Shown one piece after another: positions 2,231 through 26,344 of a DNA stretch of 44,042 nt. The number at the start of each line of letters is the position of its first letter. The stretch's first letter is position 1. The notes beneath the pieces are model-generated. The model did no database searches, was not told where the DNA came from, and was given only the letters and a program-made list of their open reading frames with translations. The translations under genes and the position numbers were made by a program. This stretch comes from Spirochaetota bacterium (GTDB taxonomy: Bacteria > Spirochaetota > B62-G9 > DRHN01): positions 1-44,042 of the forward strand of contig DATKZJ010000033.1 of the NCBI GenBank assembly GCA_035527995.1, given 5' to 3'.

Positions 2231-3286
2231 ATGAAGTACGATGAGAAAGAGCTTCTGGCAAAGGCAAAGAGGCCCGGTGAGGTCGCATCGAAGCTCCACC
2301 GGCTCTATCAGGGTAAGATAGAGGTGCTGCCCCGGTGCAGGGTAAAGAAGCTCAGCGACTTTAATGTCTGGTATACTCCGGGGGTTGCGGCCACGTGCAG
2401 GGAGATACAGAAGAACAGGGAGTTGGTATACGAGTATACGTGCAAATGGAACACTGTTGCCGTAATATCGGACGGAACGCGTGTGCTCGGACTCGGAGAC
2501 ATCGGCCCTGAGGCGGCGATGCCCGTTATGGAGGGCAAGTCGCTCCTCTTCAAGTACCTAGGCGACGTTGATGCGTTCCCTCTCTGCCTCGATACGAAGG
2601 ACCCGGAGCGGTTTATCGAAACGGTGAAGATCCTGCAGCCTTCGCTTGGAGGTGTAAACTTAGAAGACATCTCGCAGCCGAAGTGTTTTTACATACTTGA
2701 TCGATTGAGAAAGGAGTGCTCTATTCCTGTATGGCACGATGATCAGCAGGGTACGGCGGCTGTTATCGTTGCAGGACTGATGAATGCGGTGAAGGTGAAG
2801 AAGGAGTGGATTTCGCGAATGGCGAACAATTCCATTGTTTTCGTATGCGCGAATCCCGTGCCTGAAATCTGGCCATGGGAGGCAAAGGAGGCAGGCGCCA
2901 GGGTCGTTGCGACGGGCAGGAGCGATTTTCCCAACCAGGTTAATAACTCTCTGGGTTTTCCCGGAATATTCCGCGGCACCCTCGATGTGCGTGCCAGGAC
3001 GATAACCGATGAAATGTGCATCGAAGCTGCACGTGAGCTGGCAAAGACGGCCGAAGATCGGGGTCTCAGGGACGACTACATCATCCCGACGATGGATGAG
3101 TGGGAGGTCTTTCCGAGAGAGGCGGCTGCTGTGGGGATGAAGGCGATAGAGCAGGGCATCGCGCTTCAGCCGCTGGAGAAAGATGAGCTCTACAGAAGGG
3201 CGGAATCGATTATAAGAACAGCGCGAGAGAAAACGAAGATGCTGTTCGAAAAGGGGTTTATTACCGACCATGATGAGGATTTTTGA
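2231..3286 (+). CDS. Malic enzyme (NAD(P)-dependent malate dehydrogenase, decarboxylating) lacking the central dinucleotide-binding segment
   Basis: Conserved malic-enzyme blocks are present: YTPGVA, WNTVAVISDGTRVLGLGDIGP, PVMEGKSLLFK, GGVNLEDISQPKCF, IPVWHDDQQGTA, then VFVCANPVPEI and ATGRSDFPNQVNNSLGFPGIFRG. The roughly 80-100 aa that normally lie between HDDQ.GTA...NA.K and ...ANPVPEI, including the GxGxxG loop, are absent. See the finding at 2786-2803. Confidence 0.8.
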   Translation: MKYDEKELLAKAKRPGEVASKLHRLYQGKIEVLPRCRVKKLSDFNVWYTPGVAATCREIQKNRELVYEYTCKWNTVAVISDGTRVLGLGDIGPEAAMPVMEGKSLLFKYLGDVDAFPLCLDTKDPERFIETVKILQPSLGGVNLEDISQPKCFYILDRLRKECSIPVWHDDQQGTAAVIVAGLMNAVKVKKEWISRMANNSIVFVCANPVPEIWPWEAKEAGARVVATGRSDFPNQVNNSLGFPGIFRGTLDVRARTITDEMCIEAARELAKTAEDRGLRDDYIIPTMDEWEVFPREAAAVGMKAIEQGIALQPLEKDELYRRAESIIRTAREKTKMLFEKGFITDHDEDF

Positions 3287-3301
3287 CGGAGGACAAAAGC
3301 C

Positions 3302-4159
3302 ATGGGTGGAAAGCCTCGAACTGTAGATCTGCAAGAGGTGAAAAAGGCGGTAAAGAGTTTGAGCATCAGCGCCTGTACGGACCTGAACAGAGACGTAGAA
3401 GAGTCCTTCAAGCGGGCGATTGAGAAAGAGGAATCTCCCGTAGGCAGGGCAATATTCGAACAGCTTCTGAAGAATGCAGACATTGCCAGGCAGCAATCCA
3501 TACCCATATGCCAAGATACAGGGTTCACCGTGGTGTTTCTGGAGATAGGACAGGACGTTTCCTTCAGCGGGGGGTATCTGGGGGATGCGATTTCAGAGGG
3601 TGTGAGCGAGGCATATAAAGAGGGTTACCTGAGGAAATCGATTGTGAAGAACGCGTATACAAACCCTGAGAACACGGGTGACAACACCCCACCGATCGTC
3701 CATACCCGGATCGTCCCGGGAGACAGGGTAAAGATAACGGTGCTTCCCAAGGGTGGCGGCTCGGAAAACATGAGCAGGATAAAGATGATGAAGCCTGCCG
3801 ACGGTATGGAGGGAGTGCGCGACTTTGTCGTGGAGACCGTAAGGGGCGCAGGTGCGAACCCCTGTCCTCCTATTCTGGTGGGGGTCGGTCTCGGAGGAAC
3901 GTTTGATTATGTGGCGTACCTTGCAAAGAAGTCGTTACTGCGGGAGATAGGGGAGAGAAATCCAGACCCTGAGCTCGCCCGCTATGAGGTGGAGTGGCTC
4001 GAAACAATAAACAGACTCGGTATCGGTCCGGCAGGGCTCGGCGGAAGGTTCACCGCTCTGGATCTCTTTATTGAGGCGTTCCCGCGTCATATTGCCTCGT
4101 ATCCGGCGGCGGTCAACATCCAGTGCCATGCCGCACGAAGCAAAACGCATACGCTGTAG
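3302..4159 (+). CDS. fumA: Class I (Fe-S) fumarate hydratase, alpha subunit (L(+)-tartrate dehydratase alpha not excluded)
   Basis: 285 aa with the hydro-lyase alpha signature ICQDTGFTVVFLEIGQDV. Start lies 15 nt after the malic enzyme stop. The neighbouring malate and succinate enzymes favour fumarase. Confidence 0.82.
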   Translation: MGGKPRTVDLQEVKKAVKSLSISACTDLNRDVEESFKRAIEKEESPVGRAIFEQLLKNADIARQQSIPICQDTGFTVVFLEIGQDVSFSGGYLGDAISEGVSEAYKEGYLRKSIVKNAYTNPENTGDNTPPIVHTRIVPGDRVKITVLPKGGGSENMSRIKMMKPADGMEGVRDFVVETVRGAGANPCPPILVGVGLGGTFDYVAYLAKKSLLREIGERNPDPELARYEVEWLETINRLGIGPAGLGGRFTALDLFIEAFPRHIASYPAAVNIQCHAARSKTHTL

Positions 4160-4184
4160 AAACAACGAAGGGTACGGAGGAACA

Positions 4185-4739
4185 ATGGGAGACAAAAAGG
4201 TTGAAGCGCCGTTGACAGCCGAGACGGTCAAAAACCTCAAAGCAGGGGACGGCGTTCTGCTCTCAGGAGTCATATATACTGCGCGCGATGCTGCACATAA
4301 GAGGCTCGTGGATCTTATCGACAAAGGTGGACAGCTTCCTTTTGATCCGGAGGGGAGCGTCATCTATTATGTCGGCCCGTCTCCCGCTCCTCCAGGACAC
4401 GTGATAGGCGCTGCCGGACCGACGACGAGCTGCAGGATGGACAGCTACACGCCTCTGCTCTTGAAGCACGGAGTAAAGGGGATGATAGGCAAGGGGCAGC
4501 GGTCCGCTGAGGTCAAAAGGGCAATACAGGAGTATACGGCCGTTTACTTCGGAGCGACCGGAGGGGCGGCAGCGCTGATATCAGGAGCCATCGTGGAGGC
4601 GAAGATGATCGCATTCGATGATCTCGGGACCGAAGCGGTTCGACGGCTCGTTGTAAAGGAGATGCCTCTTGTAGTGATAAACGACTGTTACGGGAGGGAT
4701 CTCTATATAGAAGGAAAAAGAAAGTGGTCTCGAGAGTAG
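4185..4739 (+). CDS. fumB: Class I (Fe-S) fumarate hydratase, beta subunit
   Basis: The track ORF opens at 4071 but overlaps fumA. ATG 4185, preceded by GGAGG (4176-4180), gives MGDKKVEAPL... with the beta-subunit blocks SGVIYTARDAAHKRL and GPSPAPPGHVIGAAGPTTS. Confidence 0.82.
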   Translation: MGDKKVEAPLTAETVKNLKAGDGVLLSGVIYTARDAAHKRLVDLIDKGGQLPFDPEGSVIYYVGPSPAPPGHVIGAAGPTTSCRMDSYTPLLLKHGVKGMIGKGQRSAEVKRAIQEYTAVYFGATGGAAALISGAIVEAKMIAFDDLGTEAVRRLVVKEMPLVVINDCYGRDLYIEGKRKWSRE

Positions 4740-4847
4740 AAAGGGGCTGGTGTGATGGATAGACCGAATGCGGAGTCTGCTGCTTTTAAAAGTAATGAAA
4801 TCGGGGCTGATCGCAACGACTACGTTCTGAAGAGGAAGGATCGATCC

Positions 4848-5255
4848 ATGAATTTAAAGCTTTCTTCAAAAGAGTTGAAAAAAGAGGGTATTGAAAAAAC
4901 AGTAGAGATAAGCGAGGCGAACATATATTCCTGCTATCAGTGCGGAAAGTGCACTGCAGGGTGCCCGACCTCGGAGTTCATGGATATACCGCCGCATGAG
5001 GTGATAAGGCTTTTACAGCTGGGACAGATCGAAGAAATATTGAACGAAAACACCATCTGGATCTGTGCCTCCTGCATTACCTGCGCTGTTCGGTGTCCGA
5101 AAGGGGTGGACCTGTCAAAGATAATGGAGGCCTTGAGGCAGATCGTCCTGAGAAAGAATGTTAACCATGTTCATCCGAACAAAGTCTCGAAAGAGAAGCT
5201 GCAGACATTGCCGCAGATTGCTCTTATTGCGAATTTCCGCAAGTTCACTCATTAG
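4848..5255 (+). CDS. hdrC: Heterodisulfide reductase subunit C-like 2x[4Fe-4S] protein
   Basis: Two C-x2-C-x2-C-x3-CP motifs (CYQCGKCTAGCP, CASCITCAVRCP) separated by the HdrC-type helix PPHEVIRLLQLGQ. The start is ambiguous: GTG 4752, ATG 4755, or ATG 4848. I favour 4848 because GAGGAAGGA lies upstream of it. Confidence 0.8.
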   Translation: MNLKLSSKELKKEGIEKTVEISEANIYSCYQCGKCTAGCPTSEFMDIPPHEVIRLLQLGQIEEILNENTIWICASCITCAVRCPKGVDLSKIMEALRQIVLRKNVNHVHPNKVSKEKLQTLPQIALIANFRKFTH

Positions 5256-5298
5256 CGCGAAAGAAGAGCAAATACAATACGGGGAGTTATAGATACTA

Positions 5299-6183
5299 AT
5301 GGAAACCGTATCTTATATGCCGGGATGCACTTTAAAGACAGCAGGAAAAAATTTCGAAGAATCGGCTATAAGGCTTCTGGAAATACTAGGCGTTACGGTT
5401 GAAGAGCTCGAACGATGGTTCTGCTGCGGCACGACCTATTCTTTGTCCTCTGACAACCTTATGAACCACCTTGCGCCTGTAAGGACTCTGCTCCGTGCAA
5501 AAGAGACCGGCAGGCGGGAACTACTGGTTCTCTGTTCGATGTGCTACAATACGCTGCGAAGAACTCAGGACCTCGTGCTTCACGATCAAGAGAAGCGTGA
5601 CAAGATAAATGAATTCATGTATCGAGAAGAAACGACATTCAGCGGAGATGAAGTCAGGGTTGTTCATCTTCTCAACTATTTGAAAGATAACGTCGGATTT
5701 GAAAGGGTAGCCGAACACATTATCAGGAAGCCGTCGGATTTGAAAATAGCGCTCTATTATGGATGTATGCTCCTCCGCCCGGAAGAGGTCTCGATCGACG
5801 AGTCTTCGGAAGATCCTGTTATCATGGAGGAGCTTTTTTCATCATGCGGTATCGAGCCCGTATATTTTCCCTTTAAAACCGAGTGCTGCGGCTCATATCA
5901 GACGGTGAATAAAATAGATATCGTCCTGTCGAGGGCAGAACAGATCATAGATTCCGCCGTGAATAACGGCGCCGATATGATTGTTACCTCCTGCCCTCTC
6001 TGCTACCATAATCTCGATTCTTCTCAGGAAAGACTGGCCGATACGGTGTTCGGCTTCAGGAATATTCCTGTCATATACATAAGTCAGTTGTTGGCGTTAT
6101 TGGTCGGGGCGGGCGATGCAGCAGATTACAGTCTGCACTCGGTCGATCCGAGGCCTGTTTTAAAAGAAAAAGGATTGATTTGA
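5299..6183 (+). CDS. hdrB: Heterodisulfide reductase subunit B-like protein (two CCG domains)
   Basis: 294 aa with two CCG-domain signatures (WFCCGTTY, ECCGSYQ) and terminal C-x2-C motifs (CSMCYN, CPLCYHN). This is the only CCG-domain protein in the window. Confidence 0.85.
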   Translation: METVSYMPGCTLKTAGKNFEESAIRLLEILGVTVEELERWFCCGTTYSLSSDNLMNHLAPVRTLLRAKETGRRELLVLCSMCYNTLRRTQDLVLHDQEKRDKINEFMYREETTFSGDEVRVVHLLNYLKDNVGFERVAEHIIRKPSDLKIALYYGCMLLRPEEVSIDESSEDPVIMEELFSSCGIEPVYFPFKTECCGSYQTVNKIDIVLSRAEQIIDSAVNNGADMIVTSCPLCYHNLDSSQERLADTVFGFRNIPVIYISQLLALLVGAGDAADYSLHSVDPRPVLKEKGLI

Positions 6184-8150
6184 TGATTGTGGGTAAACGT
6201 CTGAACAGCATCGGTGTTTTTATCTGCCACTGCGGGATAAACATTGCTTCCATCGTCGACATCGAAGAGGTAAAAAAACAGCTTTCCGTCTATCCCGGAG
6301 TCGAGTTTGTGAAAGATTACCAGTACATGTGCTCAGAACCGGGGCAGTTGCTGTTCAAACAAGCGTGCGGTTCTGGAACAGTCGAAGGGGTTGTAGTTGC
6401 ATCCTGCTCGCCTAGGCTCCATGAAACGACATTTCGAAGGGCTGCGATCGAAGCCGGCATGAATCCGTATCGAATAGAGATAGCCAACATAAGGGAACAG
6501 TGTTCCTGGGTTCATCGCGATGAGAAAGAGAAGGCGACGGAAAAGGCCGTAGACATAATACAGAGCGTGATAGAACGCTCGAAACGCAACGAGTCTCTCA
6601 CTGCGGTTTCCATACAGACTACAAAGAAGGCGCTTGTTGTCGGGGCAGGTATCAGCGGGATGCAGGCGGCCCTGAATATAGCCAACAGCGGGGTCGAGAC
6701 GTATCTTCTCGACAGAGAGCCCTCCATCGGCGGGCGTATGGCCCAGCTTTCAGAAACCTTTCCGACACTGGACTGTTCGCAGTGTATCATGACGCCGCGC
6801 ATGGTCGAGGTGGGGCAGAACAGGAACATTACGCTCTTGACCTACTCCGATGTCGAGGAGGTATCGGGGTATGTCGGTAATTTCAAAGTAAAAGTACGCC
6901 GAAAGGCGGCGTATGTCGACTGGGACACGTGTACAGGCTGCGGCATATGTTCTGAAAAGTGTCCAAAAAAAGTCCCTTCCCAGTTTGATCGCTTGCTAGG
7001 CCATCGCAAGGCGATTTATAGCCCCTTTCCTCAGGCTGTTCCGAACAAGACCGTTATCGATAAGGAGAACTGTCTCTATTTTAAGACAGGCAGGTGTCGG
7101 CTCTGCGCCAAGGCCTGCCCGCTCGGAGCGATCGATTTCGAGCAAAAAGACAGGATCGAAGAGATCGAGGTAGGTGCTATTGTTGTGGCAACAGGCTATG
7201 ACCTCTACGAGAAGGAAAAGATCGAAGAGTACAGAATCGGATATTGTGAGGACGTGGTTGATGGGCTGGCCTTCGAGCGGCTCCTTTCCTCTTCGGGTCC
7301 GACGCAGGGCAAGGTCGTCCGTCCCTCCGACGGAACCGTACCGAAAGAGGTGGTATTCATACAGTGTGTGGGGTCGCGCGATCCCAACAATCATCTGCCC
7401 TACTGTTCACGTATCTGCTGTATGTACACGGCAAAGCATGCCATGCTCTACAAGCACAGGGTACCGGACGGGCAGCCGTATGTTTTTTACATGGACATTC
7501 GTTCGGGCGGAAAAAACTATGAGGAGTTCGTTCAGAGGACAATTGAAGAGGAAAAGGTTTTATATATCCGGGGCAGAGTGGCGAGGTTGTACCGGGAAAA
7601 CAACAAGGTCGTTGTCGTTGGCGCAGATACTCTCTCAGGGAAAAAGATCGAGATCAGGGCGGACATGGTCGTTCTGGCAATGGCAATGCGCCCTTCCGGA
7701 GGGATCGAGGAGTTGTCCAAAAAACTCAAGATACAGATCGACGGGAACGGATTTCTGGCGGAAGCGCATCCCAAACTTCGCCCTGTGGAAACACTGACCC
7801 AGGGCATTTTCCTCGCGGGCTGTGCGCAGGCGCCGAAAGATATCACTGATACGGTGTCCCAGGCAGGTGCGGCGGCCTCCATGGTGCTGGAACTTCTTTC
7901 GAATGAAGAGCTCTCGCATGACCCCACCACCTCATGGATAGACGAAGAGTTGTGTGCAGGGTGCGGTCAGTGTGTCTCCCAGTGCGCCTATAATGCTATA
8001 GAGCTCGACGAGAAAAAGAAAAAGGCGCATGTCAATGAAATACTGTGCCAGGGGTGCGGGGCATGTATCGTTACATGTCCGTCCGGTGCGGTGCATCAGA
8101 GGAATTTCACGATGAGTCAGTACTATTCGATGATCGAATCACTGGTATGA
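6183..8150 (+). CDS. hdrA: Heterodisulfide reductase subunit A-like FAD/FeS protein (canonical length)
   Basis: N-terminal Cys domain IGVFICHCGINIAS, the FAD Rossmann motif VVGAGISGMQAAL, DCSQCIMTPR, inserted ferredoxin motifs CTGCGICSEKCP, IQCVGSRD...YCSRICCMY, and the C-terminal ferredoxin CAGCGQCVSQC...CQGCGACIVTCP. ATG 6183 overlaps the hdrB stop by 1 nt. Confidence 0.9.
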   Translation: MIVGKRLNSIGVFICHCGINIASIVDIEEVKKQLSVYPGVEFVKDYQYMCSEPGQLLFKQACGSGTVEGVVVASCSPRLHETTFRRAAIEAGMNPYRIEIANIREQCSWVHRDEKEKATEKAVDIIQSVIERSKRNESLTAVSIQTTKKALVVGAGISGMQAALNIANSGVETYLLDREPSIGGRMAQLSETFPTLDCSQCIMTPRMVEVGQNRNITLLTYSDVEEVSGYVGNFKVKVRRKAAYVDWDTCTGCGICSEKCPKKVPSQFDRLLGHRKAIYSPFPQAVPNKTVIDKENCLYFKTGRCRLCAKACPLGAIDFEQKDRIEEIEVGAIVVATGYDLYEKEKIEEYRIGYCEDVVDGLAFERLLSSSGPTQGKVVRPSDGTVPKEVVFIQCVGSRDPNNHLPYCSRICCMYTAKHAMLYKHRVPDGQPYVFYMDIRSGGKNYEEFVQRTIEEEKVLYIRGRVARLYRENNKVVVVGADTLSGKKIEIRADMVVLAMAMRPSGGIEELSKKLKIQIDGNGFLAEAHPKLRPVETLTQGIFLAGCAQAPKDITDTVSQAGAAASMVLELLSNEELSHDPTTSWIDEELCAGCGQCVSQCAYNAIELDEKKKKAHVNEILCQGCGACIVTCPSGAVHQRNFTMSQYYSMIESLV

Positions 8151-14204: not shown

Positions 14205-14672
14205 ATGAAAACGATCGATCCAGAATTCAAACGTGAAGTAGCAGGCTGTCCGGGAGGCGAGAACATCATGCGATGTTTCGCCTGCGGGACATGCGTTCTC
14301 TCCTGTCCTGTCAGCGAGGTTACAGCCGAGTACAGCCCGCGTAAAATAATCCATATGATCCTGCTGGGAATGAAGGACGAGGTTCTCGGTTCGGAAGCTA
14401 TCTGGTACTGCATGACCTGTTACAGGTGTCATGTGCGATGCCCCCAGGATGTAAAATATCCTGAAATAATGCGTGTATTGAGAAAACTGGCCGTAGAGCA
14501 GGGGTATGTAAAGCCGGGATTTATTACCGCCGTCAGCGAGGTGGATACCGTCACGCAGGATATAAGGCGCGATATGCTGAAACGGATTGTCGAAAAGCGT
14601 AATTCGATTACAGAGGACGATATAACCGAGATCCGCAACTATTCGAAAACAACGGGCAGGAATCATGGATAA
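14205..14672 (+). CDS. Second HdrC-like 2x[4Fe-4S] protein
   Basis: The track ORF opens at 13977 but overlaps the previous gene. ATG 14205 gives MKTIDPEF... with CFACGTCVLSCP, SPRKIIHMILLGMKDEVL and CMTCYRCHVRCP, the classic HdrC layout. Confidence 0.8.
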   Translation: MKTIDPEFKREVAGCPGGENIMRCFACGTCVLSCPVSEVTAEYSPRKIIHMILLGMKDEVLGSEAIWYCMTCYRCHVRCPQDVKYPEIMRVLRKLAVEQGYVKPGFITAVSEVDTVTQDIRRDMLKRIVEKRNSITEDDITEIRNYSKTTGRNHG

Positions 14673-17600
14673 ACGAATACTGGTGATAGGAGGGGGAATA
14701 GGCGGAGTCCAGGCCGGGCTCGATCTGGCCCAGATGGGCATAAGAGTGTCCCTCGTCGAGGAAAAACCGAACATCGGCGGCCGGATGGCCCAGCTCGACA
14801 AGACGTTTCCGACAAACGACTGCTCCACCTGTATTCTTTCACCAAAGCTCGTGGAGCTCGCTTCTCACCCCAATGTGGATATATATACCTACTCAAGCGT
14901 CGAAGATATTATAAAAACGGGTGATCGTTTTAGGGTGCGTATCAGGAAAAGAGCTCGTTTCGTCGATGAAGAAAAGTGCACGGCATGCGGGCTCTGCTCT
15001 GAGAAATGCCCTGTCAAGATACCAGACCTGTTTAATAAAAATATTACCACCTCGAAATGTATAAGCATACCATACGCACAGGCAGTGCCTGCGGTCTATA
15101 AGATCGACAGGGAGCACTGCCTGCGCCTGACAAAGGGAAAATGCGGTGTTTGCGAAAAGGTCTGTCCGGCCGGTGCAGTCGATTATGAGCAAAAAGACAG
15201 GATAGAAGATATGGATTTCAGCTCCATAATAGTTGCTGCGGGCGCAGAGGAGTTCACGCCTCAAATCAGGCCTGAATACGGATATAAAATATACGAGAAT
15301 GTTGTCACGAGTATCGAATACGAGCGATTTCTCAGTGCATCCGGGCCGACGAACGGGCATATAACGCGACCCTCCGACGGGAAACAGCCCGAAAGTGTAG
15401 CCTTTATTCAGTGTGTCGGATCGCGTGACGTCGCCTCAGGCAACTACGGATACTGTTCCTCCTACTGCTGCATGCAGGCGGCCAAGGATGCCGTTATCAC
15501 GAAGGAGCACGGCGCAGGCATAAACTCCACGATCTTTTATATCGATATCAGAGCATACGGGAAGGATTTCGACAGATTTGTCGATAGGGCCAAGACGGAA
15601 TACGGGGTCGAATACAAAAGATCGAGGGTTTCGGAAATACTCGAATCTCAGGATACGAAAAACCTCACAGTGAAATATATTACACCTGACGGAACCCTAA
15701 AGGCCGAAGAGTTCGATATCGTGGTCCTCTCCGTCGGTATACGGATACCCGATAGACTGGGGGGCCTTCTCGCAGGGCTGGGTGTGAAACTCGGAGAGTA
15801 CGGATTCTGTCAGTGCCGGACGTTCCGACCCGGAGAAACAGGTATCGACGGGGTCTATGTGTGCGGCACGGTAACGGGACCGATGGATATACCGGAAACG
15901 GTAGTCTCTGCAAGCGCCACTGCTTCTCTGGCTGCACGAGGACTATTAAGCCCTGACAGGACCTCGGAGATTATTGCGGATAATCCAGAAGAGGCGGATC
16001 TTTCGGGAAAACCGCTTACAATAGGTGTCATCGTATGTCATTGCGGCACGAATATCGGTTCTGTTGTCGATGTCCCTTCGGTCGTAGAGTATGCCGGGTC
16101 GATGCCGAATGTAGTGTTTTCGCATGGACTGCTGTATGCATGTTCACAGGATTCGATTCGTTACATAATAGACAAAATCAAGGAGCACGATCTGAACCGT
16201 GTTGTTGTGGCCTCCTGTTCTCCGAGGACCCATGAAGCCCTGTTCCAGAGAGGCCTCGAAAGAGCGGGCCTCAATAAATACCTCCTGCAGATGACAAATA
16301 TACGGGATCAATGCTCCTGGGTTCATCGGGATACTCCCGACCTGGCTACCCAGAAGGCAAAAGAGCTTGTTCGTATGGCTGTCGGCAAGGCAAGATATCT
16401 GAAGCCTCTGTACGAACTGTATTCGGATGTAAAAAAGGCCTGTCTTGTAATCGGCGGGGGAATGGCCGGTATGATGGCGGCGCTCTTTGTTGCGGATAAC
16501 GGATTCAGGGTATATCTAATCGAAAAAGAGGGCGAGCTCGGCGGAAATCTGTTAAAGCTTAAGAGCCTGCTTACTGAGGAGGATGTTGCATCGTCTGTGA
16601 AAAGAATCGTCGGGAGAATCGAGGAACATCCTCGTATCGAACTGTTTCTGAATGCGGATATAAAAGAGATAGAGGGCTATATAGGAAATTTTACGACAAA
16701 GCTTATGGTGGATGATGAAGAAAAGAAGGTGGAGCATGGTGCAGTTATCGTTGCAACAGGGGCGAAAGAACATGTAACAGAAAGCTACGGCTATAAGACG
16801 GATCCGTATGTCATCACACAGAGAGAATTCGAGACGATTCTCGAGAAAAAGAATCCACTCATGAAGTATGTCGACAGCATAGCGATGATACAGTGCGTTG
16901 ATTCGCGGGAAGGCGACAGAAACTACTGCAGCCGTGTCTGCTGCGGTCAGGCCGTCAAAAATATCCTGCAGTTGAAAAAGCATTATCCTGAAAAAACCGT
17001 ATATGTTCTTTACAGGGACATGAGGACATATGGGCTGCGTGAGCCGTACTATGCAATGGCGCGGGAATCGGGGGCCCTCTTCCTGTGGTATGATGAAACC
17101 CGTAAGCCGGTTGTCGAGAAGATCGAACAGGGGAGCTTCAGAATCAACCTCTTCGATGAAATACTGCAGGAAAAAATACAGCTGCCGGTACAGCTTATCG
17201 TTCTGGGTGTCGGCATAGATCCTCTTGATACGAACGATCGTGTGGCAAAGATGCTGAAAGTCCCGCTCACAGAGGACGGGTTCTTTCACGAAGCTCACGT
17301 TAAACTTCGACCTGTTGATTTTTCCACCAGGGGTGTATTTGTCTGCGGCATGGCCCATGGGCCTAAATATATCGATGAATCCATAGCACAGGCGCTTGCT
17401 GCTGCCGGTCGGGCTCTCACGGTTCTGACAAATGATAAAGTAAGTTCGGAAGCGTACACGGCTTCGGTTGATGAAGCCCTGTGCACGGGGTGTGGGTTGT
17501 GTGCGGAGGTATGCGCATACGGCGCGGTCGAGATCGATAAAGAAAAGGCCTCTGTTAATGCGCTTCTCTGCAAGGGGTGCGGGACATGTGCGGCAACCTG

Positions 17601-17676
17601 TTTCAGCGGTGCGATCGATCTGAGCGGATTTACTAATAAACAGATAGTAAAAGAGTTCCAGGAACTTTTTATATAG
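14665..17676 (+). CDS. Tandem HdrA-like fusion (QmoA-like half plus full HdrA), 1003 aa
   Basis: The first half starts directly at the FAD Rossmann motif (VIGGGIGGVQAGL, NDCSTCILSPK, CTACGLCSEKCP, FIQCVGSRD...YCSSYCCMQ). The second half starts at IGVIVCHCGTNIGS, near nt 16020, and runs to CTGCGLCAEVC...CKGCGTCAATC. The start overlaps the preceding gene by 8 nt. Confidence 0.88.
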   Translation: MDKRILVIGGGIGGVQAGLDLAQMGIRVSLVEEKPNIGGRMAQLDKTFPTNDCSTCILSPKLVELASHPNVDIYTYSSVEDIIKTGDRFRVRIRKRARFVDEEKCTACGLCSEKCPVKIPDLFNKNITTSKCISIPYAQAVPAVYKIDREHCLRLTKGKCGVCEKVCPAGAVDYEQKDRIEDMDFSSIIVAAGAEEFTPQIRPEYGYKIYENVVTSIEYERFLSASGPTNGHITRPSDGKQPESVAFIQCVGSRDVASGNYGYCSSYCCMQAAKDAVITKEHGAGINSTIFYIDIRAYGKDFDRFVDRAKTEYGVEYKRSRVSEILESQDTKNLTVKYITPDGTLKAEEFDIVVLSVGIRIPDRLGGLLAGLGVKLGEYGFCQCRTFRPGETGIDGVYVCGTVTGPMDIPETVVSASATASLAARGLLSPDRTSEIIADNPEEADLSGKPLTIGVIVCHCGTNIGSVVDVPSVVEYAGSMPNVVFSHGLLYACSQDSIRYIIDKIKEHDLNRVVVASCSPRTHEALFQRGLERAGLNKYLLQMTNIRDQCSWVHRDTPDLATQKAKELVRMAVGKARYLKPLYELYSDVKKACLVIGGGMAGMMAALFVADNGFRVYLIEKEGELGGNLLKLKSLLTEEDVASSVKRIVGRIEEHPRIELFLNADIKEIEGYIGNFTTKLMVDDEEKKVEHGAVIVATGAKEHVTESYGYKTDPYVITQREFETILEKKNPLMKYVDSIAMIQCVDSREGDRNYCSRVCCGQAVKNILQLKKHYPEKTVYVLYRDMRTYGLREPYYAMARESGALFLWYDETRKPVVEKIEQGSFRINLFDEILQEKIQLPVQLIVLGVGIDPLDTNDRVAKMLKVPLTEDGFFHEAHVKLRPVDFSTRGVFVCGMAHGPKYIDESIAQALAAAGRALTVLTNDKVSSEAYTASVDEALCTGCGLCAEVCAYGAVEIDKEKASVNALLCKGCGTCAATCFSGAIDLSGFTNKQIVKEFQELFI

Positions 17677-17800
17677 GCGGATATGTATGAGCTGCCGGGT
17701 CGAAACATGACCTTTTACAGCGGGGGATGCTGTTTATTGACCGTTTCTTGTTGCGGCGATTGCTATAAAACCCGACAACGGCTCTGTTAGAGATGGAAAA

Positions 17801-18208
17801 ATGGAAAAAAGATTGAAGATAGTGGGATTCCTATGCAACTGGTGCTCGTATGCCGGGGCGGACCTCGCAGGAGTCAGTCGATTCCAGTATCCGGCGGATA
17901 TCCGTGTCATACGAGTCCCCTGCTCCGGGAGGGTGAATCCGTTGCTGGTACTGAAGTGTTTTCAGGAAGGAGCGGACGGGGTGCTGGTATCGGGTTGTCA
18001 TCCGGGTGACTGTCACTATCAGGAGGGCAACTACTACACGAGGCGAAGAATGATGATGCTGAAGAACCTCCTCGATTTCTTCGGAATAGACAAGAGGCGG
18101 TTTCATATTTCCTGGGTTTCCGCCTCCGAAGGGAAAAAGTGGGCCGATATCGTTATAAAGGTGGTTGAGGATGTCGGGGCTGCTTTGGAAGAGATAACAA
18201 AACAATGA
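17801..18208 (+). CDS. flxD: MvhD-like protein (FlxD position)
   Basis: FLCNWCSYAGADLAG and SGCHPGDCHY motifs. It is followed by overlapping Flx-type genes in the order D-C-B-A, as in the Desulfovibrio hdrCBA-flxDCBA locus. Confidence 0.8.
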   Translation: MEKRLKIVGFLCNWCSYAGADLAGVSRFQYPADIRVIRVPCSGRVNPLLVLKCFQEGADGVLVSGCHPGDCHYQEGNYYTRRRMMMLKNLLDFFGIDKRRFHISWVSASEGKKWADIVIKVVEDVGAALEEITKQ

Positions 18209-19062
18209 TCGGCAAGATTAAAAAAACAGCAAAACAGATACTGGGCGACGGGACGGTGAGCCTTTTTTTAGGATACGGCAAGAACAGTCTCGGTGATACT
18301 GTTCCGGTTTTTATAAAACAGGAGAAAGATGTCGAAAAGCTTGTTTGGGATGAAAGCTGTTATTACAACCTCACAAGGTACTTTACGGATAAAGATATAA
18401 ATCAATTCGAAGAAGGTCCGATCGGTGTGTTAGTCAAGGGATGCGACCAGAAATCCCTGAAAGTACTGCTGTCCGAAAAACAGGTCAAAAGAGATAGAAT
18501 CAGGATCGTAGGCCTTGTCTGCAGCGGCATGAAGAACGAGAAAGGGGATTTTTTTACAAAATGTGAGACCTGTGATTCGAACAACCCTGACGGCGAGCTG
18601 TGCGATGTCGTCATCGGGCAGAAGGTCGAGAGGAAAAACAGAGAGGATGATTTTTCCGATATAGAAAAGATCGAAGCTCTCGATCCCGCGCAAAGGCAGG
18701 AACTCTGGAGCAGATATTTCGATCGATGTCTGCGCTGTTATGCATGCCGAAACATCTGTCCGCTCTGTTACTGTAATGAATGCATCGTGGAGCAGAACGA
18801 CCCGGGGTGGGTACGGCCCTCAGCATCGAAGGAAAACAACCTCTATTTTCACATTATCAGGGCATACCATCTGACAGGCAGGTGCACAGGCTGCGGGGAA
18901 TGTGAACGTGCATGCCCTGTCGGTATCCCGTTACGCAAAATCAACAGGCGGATGATAAGGGCAGTGAGAGACAGTTTCGATTTTATAGCAGGCAGGGACG
19001 CCGAGACAAAGTCGCCTCTGGCCTGTTTCAGGCAGGACGATCGTGAGGATTTCATAAAATAG
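18205..19062 (+). CDS. flxC: FlxC-like iron-sulfur protein
   Basis: Motifs CLRCYACRNICPLCYCNEC and CTGCGECERACPVGIP. There is a 4-nt overlap with the upstream gene. Confidence 0.7.
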   Translation: MIGKIKKTAKQILGDGTVSLFLGYGKNSLGDTVPVFIKQEKDVEKLVWDESCYYNLTRYFTDKDINQFEEGPIGVLVKGCDQKSLKVLLSEKQVKRDRIRIVGLVCSGMKNEKGDFFTKCETCDSNNPDGELCDVVIGQKVERKNREDDFSDIEKIEALDPAQRQELWSRYFDRCLRCYACRNICPLCYCNECIVEQNDPGWVRPSASKENNLYFHIIRAYHLTGRCTGCGECERACPVGIPLRKINRRMIRAVRDSFDFIAGRDAETKSPLACFRQDDREDFIK

Positions 19063-19071
19063 CAGGACTGT

Positions 19072-20079
19072 ATGAGTTTATCTATGGATGAAACGGTCTT
19101 CGGTAAAAAAGAGTTATTACAAATACTAAAATCCGTATCAGACAGATGCGTGATAATAGGGCCTGTCATGGAAGACGAGAAGCTGTATTTCAGGCCTGTC
19201 GATTGTATTGATGACATAGTGTGGGAGTTTGATAATACGGTCAACAGTATCAAGGAGTTCTTCTTTCCTCAGCGCCAGGCTTTGTATGAATTAAAGCAGG
19301 ACAAGATAAGGACGTTTGAGCCTGATATAGAAAAAAAGAGGATCCTCCTCTTTCCCCGCCCGTGCGATGTTCGTGCCGTGACGATTCTGGACAAGCTGTT
19401 CATGGGTGATTATGAGGATCGGGCGTATAGAACTTTACGGGAGAATACCGTTATCATGGGTCTCAGCTGCCGAAATCCTGGTCCGCGCTGCTTCTGTCTT
19501 TCGATCGGGGGCAACCCCTTTGGCATGGAAGGAATGGATGTCTCGATTACTGCTTTAGAAAACGATAAATATATTCTCAACACGGTCACAGATAGAGGGA
19601 AAGTTATTTTTGAAGGGAAAGGCAAAAGGGCGGATAAGGAAGAGGTACAGCGGTTCGAGAGGCTGAAGAAACAGGCGGAAGAATCCATTAAGAGGGAGAT
19701 ACATATTCCAAAAGACCTTCTGAAAGCATTTGAATCGGACTACTGGAAAGAAGTATCAGAGGCCTGTCTGAAATGCGGTGTCTGTACCTATCTTTGTCCG
19801 ACCTGTCACTGTTTTGATATCGTAGACGAACGGTTTTATCGAATCAGATGCTGGGATACATGCAGCTCCGATGCGTTTACGCGAATGGCGTCAGGGGAGG
19901 ATTCCAGGAAAAATAAGTTCAAGCGATACAGGCAGAGGATATATCATAAATTCAGCTATTATAAGGAAAACTTTGAAGAGTACGCCTGCGTGGGCTGTGG
20001 GCGGTGTGCGCAGTACTGTCCGGTCAAGACGGACATCGTTGAGATTGTGAGCACTGTAAATGAAAAAGGAACGCCATGA
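19072..20079 (+). CDS. flxB: FlxB-like iron-sulfur protein (AsrA / sulfhydrogenase-beta family)
   Basis: Motifs CLKCGVCTYLCPTCHCFD and CVGCGRCAQYCP, at a length typical of AsrA/HydB-like proteins. Confidence 0.7.
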   Translation: MSLSMDETVFGKKELLQILKSVSDRCVIIGPVMEDEKLYFRPVDCIDDIVWEFDNTVNSIKEFFFPQRQALYELKQDKIRTFEPDIEKKRILLFPRPCDVRAVTILDKLFMGDYEDRAYRTLRENTVIMGLSCRNPGPRCFCLSIGGNPFGMEGMDVSITALENDKYILNTVTDRGKVIFEGKGKRADKEEVQRFERLKKQAEESIKREIHIPKDLLKAFESDYWKEVSEACLKCGVCTYLCPTCHCFDIVDERFYRIRCWDTCSSDAFTRMASGEDSRKNKFKRYRQRIYHKFSYYKENFEEYACVGCGRCAQYCPVKTDIVEIVSTVNEKGTP

Positions 20080-20912
20080 AAGACATCCTTGTACCCGACC
20101 TGGCACAGATAAAAGATATAAAAGGTGAGACGCCCGATGTCATCACTCTGAAGCTCGTTTTTAAAGACAAGGACAAGAGGGATACCTTTTCTTTTTATGC
20201 GGGACAGTTCGTAGAGCTTTCCGTTCCAAAAGAAGGTGAATCGACCTTTTGTATAGCATCCGCACCGTCCGACAAAGGGTATATGGAATGCAGCATTAAA
20301 AAGGTCGGCAGGGTAACGGAAGCCGTTCATATGCTCGAACCCGGTGACACCGTCGGTATCAGGGGCCCTTACGGGAACTCGTTTCCGATCGAGCAGATGA
20401 AAGGCAGGAACATACTGTTTATCGGAGGCGGGATCGGTCTCGTGCCGCTCCGGTCTTTGATACGGGAAGTGCTTTCCATACGAAATGATTTTAAAGACTT
20501 GCGTATCATTTACGGTGCGAGAAGCGTTACAGATCTCGTGTATAAGGACGAGCTTGACGAGTGGGGAAAGCGCGGGGATATCAAGGTCACGCTGACACTG
20601 GACCCGGGCGGCGAAACCGAAGAATGGAAGGGAGAGGTCGGGTATGTTCCTGAAGTCCTGAAAAAACAGACCCCCGTAAAACAAAACAGCATTGCCCTCA
20701 CCTGCGGTCCGCCTGTTATGATAAAGCTCGCTCTGAATGCACTCGACGAGATGGGGTTTACTCCGAAACAGATTTTCACAACGCTCGAGATGAAGATGAA
20801 GTGCGGTATAGGCACATGCGGAAGGTGTAATGTAGGGCCTCTCTATGTCTGTAAAGACGGACCTGTCTTTACCTATGAGCAGATAAAGGGGTTTATCGAG
20901 GACATATTCTGA
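20076..20912 (+). CDS. flxA: FlxA-like FAD/NAD(P)-binding oxidoreductase with C-terminal 2Fe-2S (AsrB / PyrK / sulfhydrogenase-gamma family)
   Basis: Ferredoxin-reductase fold motifs (GQFVELSVP, ILFIGGGIGLVPLRS, LTCGPPVM) and the C-terminal cluster CGIGTCGRCNV. There is a 4-nt overlap with flxB. Confidence 0.8.
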   Translation: MKDILVPDLAQIKDIKGETPDVITLKLVFKDKDKRDTFSFYAGQFVELSVPKEGESTFCIASAPSDKGYMECSIKKVGRVTEAVHMLEPGDTVGIRGPYGNSFPIEQMKGRNILFIGGGIGLVPLRSLIREVLSIRNDFKDLRIIYGARSVTDLVYKDELDEWGKRGDIKVTLTLDPGGETEEWKGEVGYVPEVLKKQTPVKQNSIALTCGPPVMIKLALNALDEMGFTPKQIFTTLEMKMKCGIGTCGRCNVGPLYVCKDGPVFTYEQIKGFIEDIF

Positions 20913-20934: not shown

Positions 20935-21693
20935 ATGGACAAAAAAGATATCATGGAGAAGATTGCTGAGTCGAACAAATCCGTTACAACGGGAATAGAC
21001 GAGAAGGACATAGAGCACTGGGTGAAGATATATGTCATGGGAATGGAGTACCGGGTCCCTGCGGTTCTTACTGTGATGCAGGCGATGGAATATGCCGGGT
21101 ACAGGTTTATTCGTTCGTGCGGCTGCAGAGCAGGTTTCTGCGGCGCATGTTCGACTGTGTATCGAACAAAAGACGATTACAAACTCAAGACGGCAATGGC
21201 ATGTCAAACAAGGGTAGAGGACGGAATGTATCTCGTTCAGATCCCCTTCTCGCCCGCAGAGAAGGCTTTCTATGATATAGAGAGCGAGGAGTACAGTGCA
21301 AATGTTTTTCTGAAGTGGTATCCGGAGATTGCCCGCTGTTTGTCCTGCAATACATGTACAAAGGCGTGTCCCCAGGATATCGAGGTCATGGATTACATAC
21401 AGGCGGCTTTGAGAGGAGATTTTGAAAAGGTCGCCGAGATTTCATTCGACTGCATTCAATGCGGGCTCTGCGCCATACGATGTCCTGCCGAGATAGTTCA
21501 GTATTACATTGGCCAGCTTGGAAGGAGAATGTATGGGCTGCATGGGCTGCCGAGGGACGAAAATGTTGAAAGCAGGGTAAAAGAGATAAAAGAAAATAAA
21601 TATGATGAAGAATTCGAAAAAACCATGGGCTTCAATAACGAAAAGCTTAGATCCGTTTATTCGGAGTACCAGAGAACAAGAGAGGTTTATTGA
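20935..21693 (+). CDS. SdhB/FrdB-like iron-sulfur subunit (2Fe-2S domain plus two 4Fe-4S-type motifs)
   Basis: Plant-type 2Fe-2S pattern CRAGFCGAC...C, then CLSCNTCTKACP and CIQCGLCAIRCP. The ORF opens at ATG 20920, but GGAGGA precedes ATG 20935. Confidence 0.72.
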   Translation: MDKKDIMEKIAESNKSVTTGIDEKDIEHWVKIYVMGMEYRVPAVLTVMQAMEYAGYRFIRSCGCRAGFCGACSTVYRTKDDYKLKTAMACQTRVEDGMYLVQIPFSPAEKAFYDIESEEYSANVFLKWYPEIARCLSCNTCTKACPQDIEVMDYIQAALRGDFEKVAEISFDCIQCGLCAIRCPAEIVQYYIGQLGRRMYGLHGLPRDENVESRVKEIKENKYDEEFEKTMGFNNEKLRSVYSEYQRTREVY

Positions 21694-21704
21694 GGGGGTT
21701 TGAG

Positions 21705-23366
21705 ATGTCCGAACTTACGTTTATCGATGGATATCCTGAATATATGTATGAGTCGATAAAGAAGGTTGAAAAGACCCGTGATAAACGGATAGGAAAACTG
21801 GTCCCACAGATGTCGCAAAAACAGAGAAGGGAAATTCTTGACCAGTATCATCCGGATTATACTGAGGGTGGAAAGAGACAGATCAGGCATGGGCAGAACA
21901 GGGGAGATCTGGCACCTCATGAGCTTGTCGATCTACTCGAATCGTTTCCATTGATAGATGAGAACGATGTGGACTTGAGTAAAATAGACTATGAAGTGGA
22001 TGTTCTTATTATCGGGGGCGGTCTCGCAGGGACGAGTGCGGCGCTGCTCGCCAATGAGTCCGGGATACCAGCGGAGAAAATACTGCTTGTTAACAAGCTT
22101 CGGCATGGTGATTCCAATTCCACGATGGCCCAGGGAGGCACGCAGGCAGCGGACAGGCCCAACGACTCTCCTGTTATTCACTATTTAGATGTGATAGGAG
22201 GGGGCCATTTTACGAACAAGCCTGATGTTGTACGGGCCCTTACCGAGGACGCCCCTGTTGTCGTTAAATGGCTCTGCGATCTCGGTGTTCTGTTCGACAG
22301 AGATGAGGATGCAGGCTTTATCGAGCTTTCAGGAGGCGGGACGTCGAGAAAGAGGATGCATGCCTGCAGGGATTATACGGGCATGGAGGAGTTGAGGGTA
22401 ATAAAGGATGAATTCAAGAACAGAAAAATAAACGTCCTTGAGTTTCATCCGGCTATCGAGCTTCTGACCGACGGGAGTGGAACCGTAACAGGTGCCGTAC
22501 TGTGGGGACTGGAGACGCATGAATACAGGATCGTGAAGGCAAAGGCCACGATAGTTGCTACTGGCGGATTCGGGAGGCTGCACATAAGGGGGTTCCCAAC
22601 CACAAATCATTACGGTGCCACGAGTGATGGAATCATTCTTGTCTACAGGGTGGGTGCAAAGCTTCTGGATACAGACACGGTACAGTACCACCCTACAGGC
22701 GCGGCGTATCCACAGCAGATTATAGGCCTTTTATTGACTGAGAAATTGAGAACGAGCGGTGCTCAACCGGTTAATATAGACGGCGATGAATTCGTGTTTC
22801 CGCTTGAACCCAGGGATGTGGAGGCGTCGGCAATTATCAGGGAATGTTACGGTAATGACAAAGGGGTGACGACTCCATCGGGCATGAGAGGCGTTTGGCT
22901 GGATACCCCTCTTATCGATATAATAAACGGTGAAGGAACAGCCCAGAAGTCTTTTCCCGGAATGGTACGGATGTTCAAGAGATTCGGGATCGATATGATA
23001 AAGAATCCGGTTCTTATCTTCCCGACACTTCATTATCAGAACGGTGGCGTAGAGACAGATCCGTTTGGAAAAACAAATGTAAAAGGACTGTTTGTTGCCG
23101 GAGAGGTTACAGGCGGAGTACACGGGAAAAATAGATTGATGGGAAACTCCACTCTCGATTGCCTTGTGTTCGGGCGGAGGGCGGGCAGTACAGCGGCGGA
23201 ATATGTAAAAATGCGTAAAGCATACGGGAGACTGACGCTACAGCACTTAAATACGTATACAAAAATGCTCGTGGAAGCAGGAGTCAAGACACAAAGAAGA
23301 GCGCCGATTCTACTTCCTGATTATAGGGGGAAGGCAGTACTTGCCAGGATGATAGACGTAATGTAG
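21705..23366 (+). CDS. Fumarate reductase / succinate dehydrogenase / L-aspartate oxidase family flavoprotein with an N-terminal extension of about 95 aa
   Basis: Motifs DVLIIGGGLAGTSAAL, SNSTMAQGG, VQYHPTG, LLTEKLR, PTLHYQNGG and GGVHGKNRLMGNSTLDCLVFG. The ORF opens at TTG 21690. ATG 21705 follows GAGGGGG. Confidence 0.8.
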   Translation: MSELTFIDGYPEYMYESIKKVEKTRDKRIGKLVPQMSQKQRREILDQYHPDYTEGGKRQIRHGQNRGDLAPHELVDLLESFPLIDENDVDLSKIDYEVDVLIIGGGLAGTSAALLANESGIPAEKILLVNKLRHGDSNSTMAQGGTQAADRPNDSPVIHYLDVIGGGHFTNKPDVVRALTEDAPVVVKWLCDLGVLFDRDEDAGFIELSGGGTSRKRMHACRDYTGMEELRVIKDEFKNRKINVLEFHPAIELLTDGSGTVTGAVLWGLETHEYRIVKAKATIVATGGFGRLHIRGFPTTNHYGATSDGIILVYRVGAKLLDTDTVQYHPTGAAYPQQIIGLLLTEKLRTSGAQPVNIDGDEFVFPLEPRDVEASAIIRECYGNDKGVTTPSGMRGVWLDTPLIDIINGEGTAQKSFPGMVRMFKRFGIDMIKNPVLIFPTLHYQNGGVETDPFGKTNVKGLFVAGEVTGGVHGKNRLMGNSTLDCLVFGRRAGSTAAEYVKMRKAYGRLTLQHLNTYTKMLVEAGVKTQRRAPILLPDYRGKAVLARMIDVM

Positions 23367-23402: not shown

Positions 23403-23431
23403 TTGACTTCAAAGAATACCCCCTGTATTTT
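23403..23431 (+). promoter_or_regulatory. Putative sigma70-type promoter for the riboswitch-controlled transporter operon
   Basis: TTGACT (23403-23408), a 17-nt spacer, then TATTTT (23426-23431), immediately upstream of riboswitch helix P1. Confidence 0.45.
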
Positions 23432-25334: not shown

Positions 25335-26344
25335 TTGGAAAAGCTCGACGTCGGATTCATTTTCGCCGCCTTTTTTTCGTTTCTGCTGCTGCAGCGCTGT
25401 TATCGTTAAATGCGTTAGAGACAGATGCATCGGACAGCGTCAAGATAGCCATGGGTTACATTCCCAATGTACAGTTCGCCCCCTACTACGTCGCGGTAGA
25501 GAAGGGCTACTTCCGGGATGAAGGCATCGACGTGACGTTCGACTACGGGATGGCAACGGATATCATGAGCCTCGTTGCAAACGGGTCGGTGGATTTCGGA
25601 GTCTCGGACGGGGACCAGGTCATAATCGCGAGAGAGAAAGGGATTCCTGTACGGGTGGTGTACACGATGTACGTGAAGTATCCTGTCGGGATCATGGCCC
25701 TCGAAGAAAGCGGTATCACGGACGTACGGTCACTTGCAGGGAAGCGGGTGGGAACGCCGGTTCCGTACGGATCGAACTACTTCGGACTGCAGGTGATACT
25801 CGGCAGCGAAGGCATGACACTGAAGGACATAGACCTCAGCTTCATAGGATATACCCAGATCGAGAGCCTCCTCGCTGGAAGGGTGGACGCCAGTGTCGTT
25901 TTCATCAACAACGAGCCTGTCGTTCTGGGAGACATGGGGAAGAGCGTCAGAGTGATAGAGGCGTACCCCATCACGCCGATGGTCTCCGCGGCAATCATCG
26001 CAGGAGAACGGCTTATAAAACAGGACCCCGACCTTGTCAGGAGGTTCGTACGGGCGGTAAGCAGGGCGAGCGTGTACGCACTCGAAAACAGGGAGAAGGT
26101 ACTCCCTCTTATAAAAAAATATGTGCCGACCCTGTCCGACGATAACATCAAGATCAACAGGAATGTGCTTTTACGGTCGATGGAGCTGTGGGTCGACGAT
26201 GATATAGAGAGAAACGGATCAGGATACACGTCGCCGGAGGATTGGAAGCGCTCGATCGATACAATGCTCTCGCTCGGCCTCATCAAAAAGAGGGTCGATC
26301 CAGTAGGGTGCTACACCAACGAATTCATAGTCACCGGCAAGTAA
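25331..26344 (+). CDS. ABC transporter substrate-binding protein, NMT1/THI5-like (RibY/ThiY-like)
   Basis: Signal-like N-terminus (RRLFFVSAAAALLSLNA), then IAMGYIPNVQFAPYYVAVEKGYF, typical of NMT1/THI5-like binding proteins. The start overlaps the upstream stop (ATGA). Confidence 0.8.
   Translation: MIGKARRRIHFRRLFFVSAAAALLSLNALETDASDSVKIAMGYIPNVQFAPYYVAVEKGYFRDEGIDVTFDYGMATDIMSLVANGSVDFGVSDGDQVIIAREKGIPVRVVYTMYVKYPVGIMALEESGITDVRSLAGKRVGTPVPYGSNYFGLQVILGSEGMTLKDIDLSFIGYTQIESLLAGRVDASVVFINNEPVVLGDMGKSVRVIEAYPITPMVSAAIIAGERLIKQDPDLVRRFVRAVSRASVYALENREKVLPLIKKYVPTLSDDNIKINRNVLLRSMELWVDDDIERNGSGYTSPEDWKRSIDTMLSLGLIKKRVDPVGCYTNEFIVTGK

Follow-up and report, generated by a model that had tools for sequence, protein, structure and literature searches.

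The stretch analyzed here (the window) is a 44,042-nucleotide (nt) contig, DATKZJ010000033.1, from a Spirochaetota bacterium. Between positions 20935 and 23366 it carries two intact, closely spaced open reading frames (ORFs) on the + strand, encoding an Fe-S subunit and a flavoprotein of the SdhA/FrdA/NadB superfamily. On balance, and with modest confidence, we read this pair from its sequence and gene context as a cytoplasmic, quinone-independent fumarate reductase with non-covalent flavin adenine dinucleotide (FAD), wired to an Hdr/Flx bifurcating module. The Fe-S gene (20935..21693, +; 252 amino acids, aa) encodes an SdhB/TfrB-like N-terminal 2Fe-2S domain followed by a 2x[4Fe-4S] ferredoxin domain; it starts at ATG 20935, preceded by GGAGGAAG, 22 nt beyond the stop codon of a FlxA-like gene. 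The flavoprotein gene (21705..23366, +; 553 aa, PF00890 at 1.4e-61) starts at ATG 21705, preceded by GAGGGGG, and an in-frame TTG further upstream is unlikely to be the start. Neither protein contains a hydrophobic segment or a twin-arginine (Tat) or Sec signal, and neither the window operon nor the neighbors in 80 related loci include an anchor gene.

Active site, domain make-up and redox centers of the pair

Residues of the flavoprotein were mapped by scripted comparison, with HMMER against a solved SdhA (7d6v) and with MAFFT against E. coli SdhA, FrdA and NadB (NC_000913), and conservation was counted over 63 aligned family sequences. Both alignments place Asn138 (codon 22116..22118, +) at His45 of E. 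coli SdhA and FrdA (counting Met), the histidine that binds FAD covalently, as the initial annotation had proposed; the position is Asn in 63/63 family sequences. The dicarboxylate and catalytic residues, likewise predicted to be kept, all align and are invariant in the same 63 sequences. Encoded at 22689..23135 (+), they comprise His329 of HPTG (FrdA His232, substrate binding), Thr345, Glu346 and Arg349 of LLTEKLR (FrdA Thr244, Glu245 and Arg248, proton path and hinge), Arg370 in the PRD motif of LEPRD (FrdA Arg287, proton donor), His443 of HYQNGG (FrdA His355, substrate binding) and Arg477 of HGKNRLMGNS (FrdA Arg390, substrate binding). The LLTEKLR arginine is thus conserved as first noted, but the role of proton donor falls to Arg370 and not to it.

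The substitution at the flavin has well-known counterparts. E. coli FrdA His44 variants, whose FAD is non-covalent, still reduce fumarate and have lost succinate oxidation; FrdA or SdhA variants without the covalent histidine have a lower flavin potential and no longer oxidize succinate, and throughout the superfamily non-covalent FAD accompanies fumarate reduction with poor succinate oxidation. The domain make-up of the flavoprotein is also reduced. Pfam FAD_binding_2 (PF00890) matches residues 99–482 with 209 bits against a cut-off of 20.4, and the Pfam search gave no match to PF02910 (Succ_DH_flav_C) in the protein. By alignment, the C-terminus falls at about SdhA residue 485, leaving ~100–130 residues fewer, and most of the helical domain and the entire C-terminal domain are missing. 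Together, the presence of Asn138 in all members and the absence of the C-terminal domains point to the reductive direction. Every NCBIfam model scored below its cut-off (TfrA 284 of 718 bits, NadB 267.5 of 452.75, SdhA/FrdA 259 of 567), and the TfrA match (NF004900) covers profile positions 6–410 only.

The Fe-S subunit contains the annotated 2Fe-2S domain and two Cx2Cx2Cx3CP motifs. Its plant-type 2Fe-2S ligand block, CRAGFCGAC...C (C64, C69, C72 and C90; 21124..21204, +), aligns with CREGVCGS of SdhB and CRMAICGSC of FrdB and has an extra C62 just upstream. The first CxxCxxCxxxCP motif (C135, C138, C141, C145 and P146) lies at 21337..21372 (+) and the second (C173, C176, C179, C183 and P184) at 21451..21486 (+). 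The latter offers four cysteines, matching TfrB (CTTCRNCWAVCP), whereas classical SdhB and FrdB bind a 3Fe-4S cluster there. Being TfrB-like, the second motif represents a known non-classical SdhB pattern, and the suggested likeness to HdrC in particular was not upheld. The three-cluster wire predicted from these ligands ends in a 4Fe-4S cluster, not in a quinone-site 3Fe-4S cluster. Pfam assigned Fer2_4/Fer2/Fer2_3 and Fer4_8/17 to the subunit, while NCBIfam TfrB (NF004898), a type of protein that joins an SdhB-like domain to two HdrB-like CCG domains, matched only the N-terminal 2Fe-2S region, with 35.7 bits against 385. No CCG domain was found in the 252 residues, HdrB being a separate gene, and the protein ends in a charged tail of ~50 aa. 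In the IMG cluster of protein P0274, a 251-aa Fe-S partner is named 'heterodisulfide reductase subunit C' and shares a 90% cluster with a 552-aa flavoprotein; this grouping has the look of a clustering or annotation artifact, and automated pathway calls could be led astray by it.

The Rossmann motif DVLIIGGG begins at residue 99 of the flavoprotein, which establishes the annotated N-terminal extension of ~95 aa as real (residues 1–95; 21705..21989, +). It is family-specific and Cys-free, and less conserved than the core (mean column majority 0.62 versus 0.76), with conserved positions at Y10, V21, R25, R28, L45, H49-P50-D51, G63, G67 and D95. The 63-sequence alignment contains no conserved Cys in the extension, and a cofactor-binding role was rejected on this ground. 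A HMMER search with residues 1–95 over 1.84 billion representatives yielded 321 matches, which were N-terminal pieces of the same flavoprotein family or frameshifted or chimeric gene calls of it; the extension did not emerge as an independent domain, a possibility raised at the outset. An ESM Atlas search with the extension returned nothing at or above 0.9. Giant repeat proteins (P0130, P0162 and P0270; 2889–5816 aa) match residues 48–78 only, each in many copies of a motif resembling F-PDYTQ-G-YQVR...LAD..LVD; this was judged uninformative, the likeness probably reflecting a shared beta-hairpin-like pattern without common descent. In the 257-aa protein P0152 the extension and the Rossmann start are joined to a stretch that by eye resembles succinyl-CoA synthetase alpha, most likely as an assembly chimera.

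An AlphaFold model computed from an alignment of 82 sequences gave a predicted local distance difference test score (pLDDT) of 92.4 and a predicted template-modeling score (pTM) of 0.92 for the flavoprotein; an earlier model from 35 close homologs (pLDDT 61) was discarded. In the model, the extension packs on the core of the monomer with pLDDT 83–97, forming helices 12–28 and 38–48, short strands and a helix at 72–78 before the Rossmann strand. Foldseek and VIA-align ranked the soluble Shewanella flavocytochrome c3 (Fcc3) fumarate reductases at the top (Z 42, root-mean-square deviation 2.0–2.2 Å), with the best alignment covering 389 residues (model 76–501) at 34% identity. FrdA, urocanate reductase, Osm1, SdhA and NadB came next, the VIA Z scores of FrdA, SdhA, NadB and Fcc3 ranging from 33 to 42. 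Residues 1–75 were not covered by any Foldseek or VIA alignment.

Operon, synteny and family distribution

The pair belongs to a long + strand array. At its head lie malic enzyme and class I fumarase alpha and beta genes (2231..4739, +), followed by HdrC, HdrB with two CCG domains and HdrA (4752..8150, +), a 1477-aa HdrA/GltD-like fusion, MvhD, an FrhB-like protein and an Fe-S protein. A 1003-aa tandem HdrA-like protein and an MvhD/FlxD-like protein (14665..18208, +), identified with Pfam and NCBIfam, then lead to FlxC-, FlxB- and FlxA-like genes for two Fe-S proteins and a NAD(P)H/FAD/2Fe-2S protein (18205..20912, +), assigned by Pfam, NCBIfam and the ORF map, and finally to the Fe-S/flavoprotein pair. 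FlxABCD-HdrABC is an NADH dehydrogenase/heterodisulfide reductase (Ramos et al. 2015, cited in PMC7282089), and all seven of its domain types are present in this array, as counted by domain rather than by orthology to the Desulfovibrio proteins.

Conservation of this setting was assessed by tblastn of the window proteins against 80 related loci from other species, with adjacent genes counted in 68 loci and neighbors within a 10-kb range in the 57 loci having at least 5 kb upstream. Directly before the Fe-S gene lies HdrB in 46/68 loci and, as in the window, FlxA in 3/68. Within 10 kb, HdrB is found in 49/57 loci, HdrC in 47/57, HdrA in 47/57 and MvhD in 44/57; Flx genes (12/57), fumarase (13/57) and malic enzyme (8/57) are less frequent. 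The dominant HdrC-HdrB-FeS-flavoprotein layout is a split form of TfrAB together with HdrC, HdrA and MvhD.

Two k-mer searches each returned at least 8000 candidate full-length homologs, extension included, with 71–99% identity among the matches listed. A survey of one genome per GTDB species found relatives among both Bacteria and Archaea, in at least 596 species altogether, the best 80 all being metagenome-assembled genomes (MAGs) with 55–75% identity. The bacterial groups include WOR-3, Stahlbacteria, Aminicenantes, Bipolaricaulota, Thermotogota, Chloroflexota and Planctomycetota, and the archaeal ones Thermoplasmata, Bathyarchaeota, Culexarchaeota, Methanofastidiosa, Theionarchaea and Heimdallarchaeota. 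A homolog search started from a MAG labeled 'Eubacteriales' and a look-up of cluster names retrieved MAG proteins only and no family member from a cultured organism.

A maximum-likelihood tree was computed from the family, E. coli SdhA, FrdA and NadB, a near-cut-off TfrA, and SdhA- and NadB-like proteins of the window's own phylum; the TfrA reference (locus L129, 668 bits) was the sole near-cut-off one among 61 genomes of one archaeal phylum. The family forms a clade with support 100/100, on a long stem (1.2 substitutions per site) above short branches, and the tree does not resolve its placement among the SdhA/FrdA, NadB and TfrA-like groups. Branching inside the family departs from taxonomy, and only 9/201 sampled genomes of the window's phylum, from 2 families, carry a member; both observations suggest lateral spread. 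A Spirochaetaceae MAG (L060) and a Fibrobacterota MAG (L071) nest in archaeal subclades (Thermoplasmata, Heimdallarchaeota), which points to either inter-domain transfer or mis-binned contigs.

The genome of the window also encodes a separate NadB (contig C138; 450 bits versus 452.75), whose gene is truncated by the contig end. A third PF00890 paralog of 571 aa, with 377 bits to the TfrA model, adjoins a DeoR/GlpR regulator on contig C5 (L083:1477-3192, +). Its active site has diverged: His329, Thr345, Arg349 and His473 are replaced by Tyr, Glu, Asp and Gln, respectively, and Gly occupies the place of the covalent His. NadB-like proteins of the window's phylum (L089, L091, L097, L100 and L105-L116) share the motif (D/E)(S/C)NTxYAQGG, which indicates that Asn at the covalent-His position is common in NadB-type proteins of that phylum and not peculiar to the Hdr-linked family.

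Proposed electron route and competing readings

In the mechanism we propose, malic enzyme and fumarase of the same operon would supply fumarate, which would be reduced to succinate at the non-covalent FAD of the 553-aa flavoprotein. Electrons would reach this FAD through the 2Fe-2S and two 4Fe-4S clusters of the 252-aa subunit, itself fed by the Hdr module along a path from the HdrA FAD via HdrC to the CCG clusters of HdrB. In the window, NADH would enter the Hdr module via FlxABC(D), and HdrA would bifurcate, one path leading to ferredoxin (Fd) and the other through HdrC/HdrB, the Fe-S subunit and FAD to fumarate. The exergonic reduction of fumarate (E0' ~ +30 mV) would thereby pay for ferredoxin reduction by the same donor, with a predicted net reaction of 2 NADH + fumarate + Fd(ox) → 2 NAD+ + succinate + Fd(red).

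What the sequences show is the gene content, the conserved active site and synteny, the solubility, and the absence of the apparatus for covalent FAD binding. The initial view of a soluble reductase-type enzyme accordingly stands: the pair has no anchor or hydrophobic segment, Asn is found throughout the family, the active site is intact, Fcc3 is the top structural match, fumarase and malic enzyme share the operon, and NadB orthology is excluded. The gene context further points to flavin-based bifurcation, and from it we infer a physical complex with the Hdr module and the identity of the donor. The suggested docking of the extension to Hdr/Flx proteins is neither shown nor refuted by these data; the family almost always adjoins Hdr genes, and its usual neighbor is HdrB, not Flx. 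Tentatively, the family may constitute an uncharacterized class of bifurcation in which fumarate replaces heterodisulfide at HdrABC, with the extension and the loss of the FAD apparatus and C-terminal domains serving as an adaptor onto HdrB. A class with fumarate as the HdrABC acceptor may span hundreds of uncultured bacterial and archaeal species.

Several observations weigh against the proposed Hdr-wired fumarate reductase. Position 143, equivalent to FrdA Glu49/SdhA Gln50, which we take to be a tuner of directionality, is Gln here and in 51/63 members, i.e., in the SdhA state. In 8/57 loci (~14%) the pair is isolated, the surrounding 10 kb containing no Hdr gene, as in L013, where it sits between unrelated genes; a fixed supercomplex is therefore not obligatory. 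In favor of the Hdr link, on the other hand, HdrB is encoded elsewhere in 5/5 isolated-pair genomes tested, at 38–43% identity. Since HdrB is known for disulfide chemistry, its presence also allows for a mechanism that runs through thiols. The close relatives that were found all come from MAGs, and a literature search found no biochemical characterization of any family member.

The thiol-mediated possibility can be framed as a split thiol:fumarate reductase, in which three genes, for HdrB, the Fe-S subunit and the flavoprotein, would together be equivalent to methanogen TfrAB. A dithiol, diffusible or protein-bound, would be oxidized, and HdrABC/Flx would separately re-reduce the disulfide with bifurcation; the net chemistry would be that given above, with coupling through a thiol/disulfide carrier instead of direct transfer. 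In L129 (668 bits, fumarase adjoining), TfrB indeed unites an SdhB-like and an HdrB-like CCG domain in one protein, and the frequent position of HdrB directly upstream of the Fe-S gene suits a split version of it. We nevertheless regard this arrangement as unlikely, since most loci have a single HdrB, which both enzymes would need, the hosts are mostly non-methanogens with no known coenzyme M/coenzyme B, and the flavoprotein is not a TfrA ortholog. TfrA identity itself was rejected on the score of 284 versus 718 bits and on a clade apart from the TfrA-like protein of L129, which has His where the family has Asn. Operation in the oxidative direction appears improbable. Here a soluble succinate dehydrogenase, acting during succinate or propionate oxidation, would combine its electrons with reduced ferredoxin to reduce NAD+ or form H2 (confurcation), and fumarase and malic enzyme would carry the product to pyruvate. 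These two genes suit both directions, and the Gln at position 143 speaks for the SdhA-like one; the invariant Asn138 speaks against it, given that loss of the covalent His abolishes succinate oxidation, and averaging succinate/fumarate (+30 mV) with ferredoxin gives a potential that would be too positive for NAD+ reduction under standard conditions.

We give similarly little credence to a fumarate reductase look-alike acting on another C4-dicarboxylate or an enoate, e.g., L-aspartate as in NadB. Asn/Ser at the His position and a 2–3-residue insertion after HPT are common to NadB-type proteins, and the NCBIfam NadB score (267 bits) is near that of TfrA (284). Yet NadB has no Fe-S partner, whereas an Fe-S gene adjoins here; NadB Glu121 corresponds to Gly210, Gly being found in 62/63 members; the genome has its own NadB, from which the family clade is separate; and the recurrent metabolic neighbor is fumarase. 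NadB orthology was rejected on this residue, the separate gene and clade, and a score below the cut-off. A different question concerns the extension, which might stand in structurally, within the protein itself, for the helical and C-terminal regions that are missing, stabilizing the FAD domain or covering the flavin. This is a credible option that explains the extension equally well. Gain of the extension and loss of ~130 C-terminal residues coincide in every member, AlphaFold packs the extension confidently without a partner, and it is unchanged in loci without a nearby Hdr gene; nothing directly opposes the idea, and the strict co-occurrence of the family with Hdr in genomes is equally compatible with docking. 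Three further identities were discarded: classical complex II, for want of the covalent His, an anchor, the 3Fe-4S motif and PF02910; a Tat-exported MFR-type enzyme, which would carry a twin-arginine or hydrophobic signal; and adenosine-5'-phosphosulfate reductase, for which NCBIfam gave no family match.

If the Hdr-wired fumarate reductase is correct, many anaerobes of sediments, hot springs and digesters, among them WOR-3, Aminicenantes, Bipolaricaulota, Thermoplasmata, Bathyarchaeia, Asgard and Chloroflexota, would reduce fumarate in a cytoplasmic, ferredoxin-generating reaction and not by quinone-linked respiration. To judge from the sequences, the family probably lets anaerobes use fumarate as a downhill electron sink for reduced ferredoxin. 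Estimates of ATP yield, metagenomic "sdhAB/frdAB" or "tfrAB" calls and models of the reductive tricarboxylic acid branch would change with it. The family is compact (55–90% identity across domains), and GDSN-S/T-MAQGG with its Asn, HPDY in the extension and the short C-terminus offer annotation markers that separate it from complex II, NadB and TfrA.

Related systems and flanking features

The E. coli SdhABCD and FrdABCD enzymes share with the pair the flavoprotein fold, the catalytic residues and, in the B subunit, the arrangement of 2Fe-2S plus 4Fe-4S clusters. The pair differs from complex II in having no anchor or quinone site, no covalent-FAD His and no C-terminal domain, and in its link to HdrA/MvhD. 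In type E SdhABEF, SdhAB is paired with an HdrB-like CCG protein and has a second 4Fe-4S cluster. Shewanella Fcc3 (1qjd, 2b7s) resembles the proposed enzyme in being a unidirectional fumarate reductase with non-covalent FAD and an N-terminal appendage of ~100 residues; that appendage is a tetraheme cytochrome, whereas the extension described here has no cofactor-binding Cys/His pattern, and Fcc3 is periplasmic and has no Fe-S subunit. NadB resembles the flavoprotein in being soluble, with non-covalent FAD, Ser/Asn at the His position and the insertion after HPT. Unlike the pair, it is monomeric, uses Glu121 for the amino group and keeps the helical domain with its ESRG motif.

TfrAB of methanogens (Heim et al. 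1998, as cited in PMC6315080) is the closest parallel in architecture: a soluble, quinone-independent SdhA-like flavoprotein with an SdhB-like protein carrying 2Fe-2S and two four-Cys motifs, associated with an HdrB-type CCG module and, in L129, with an adjacent fumarase. In L129 the TfrA-like gene is followed by TfrB with fused CCG domains, whereas in the family HdrB is a separate gene accompanied by HdrC, HdrA and MvhD. The L129 TfrA-like protein (570 aa) keeps the His (EGKAHTVMAEGG) and full C-terminal domains and has no N-terminal extension.

The idea of operon-level bifurcation has precedents. In Pseudoclostridium thermosuccinogenes, a 'succinate operon' of fumarase, Flx-Hdr and fumarate reductase genes is co-regulated and proposed to bifurcate and reduce ferredoxin (PMC7282089, citing a preprint by Koendjbiharie & van Kranenburg 2019 for the bifurcating Flx-Hdr idea). 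In tubeworm symbionts, tfrAB is interleaved with flxABCD-hdrABC and the same idea has been put forward (PMC6315080, PMC13147460). By their published descriptions, these systems share with the window fumarase, HdrABC, FlxABCD and an anchor-less two-subunit fumarate reductase, as well as the proposed reaction, which in their case is a hypothesis with transcript data only. The NADH-dependent soluble fumarate reductase of Hydrogenobacter thermophilus, an enzyme of five subunits (Miura et al. 2008, per PMC13147460), is reported to be non-bifurcating and, again by description, combines a soluble FrdAB core with extra redox subunits linking it to NADH. In genome papers on Culexarchaeia and Hermodarchaeota, genes of this kind are simply annotated as TfrA or as a cytoplasmic fumarate reductase. 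The family signature (invariant Asn, extension, short C-terminus, separate clade) does not appear in the passages that match term searches, either in these papers or in those on P. thermosuccinogenes and the symbionts.

Downstream of the pair, no intrinsic terminator was found in a search 3' of the flavoprotein gene. A flavin mononucleotide (FMN) riboswitch (Rfam RF00050; 23435-23582, +; 103 bits versus a gathering threshold of 66) follows the gene directly, with a promoter-like site at 23403-23431, and precedes genes at 23700-26344 (+) for a fused ATP-binding cassette ATPase-permease and an NMT1/SsuA-type binding protein. The riboswitch opens the next transcription unit, which makes the Fe-S/flavoprotein pair the last cistrons of the long array. 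At the other end of the array, the malic-enzyme gene (2231-3286, +) matches as two separate tblastn pieces in every related locus with the gene, a pattern that fits a window copy without an internal segment. Further along the contig, a gene for the bacterial selenocysteine synthase SelA (39787-41226, -) adjoins a selenocysteine tRNA gene (tRNA-Sec, anticodon TCA), indicating that the organism uses selenoproteins.

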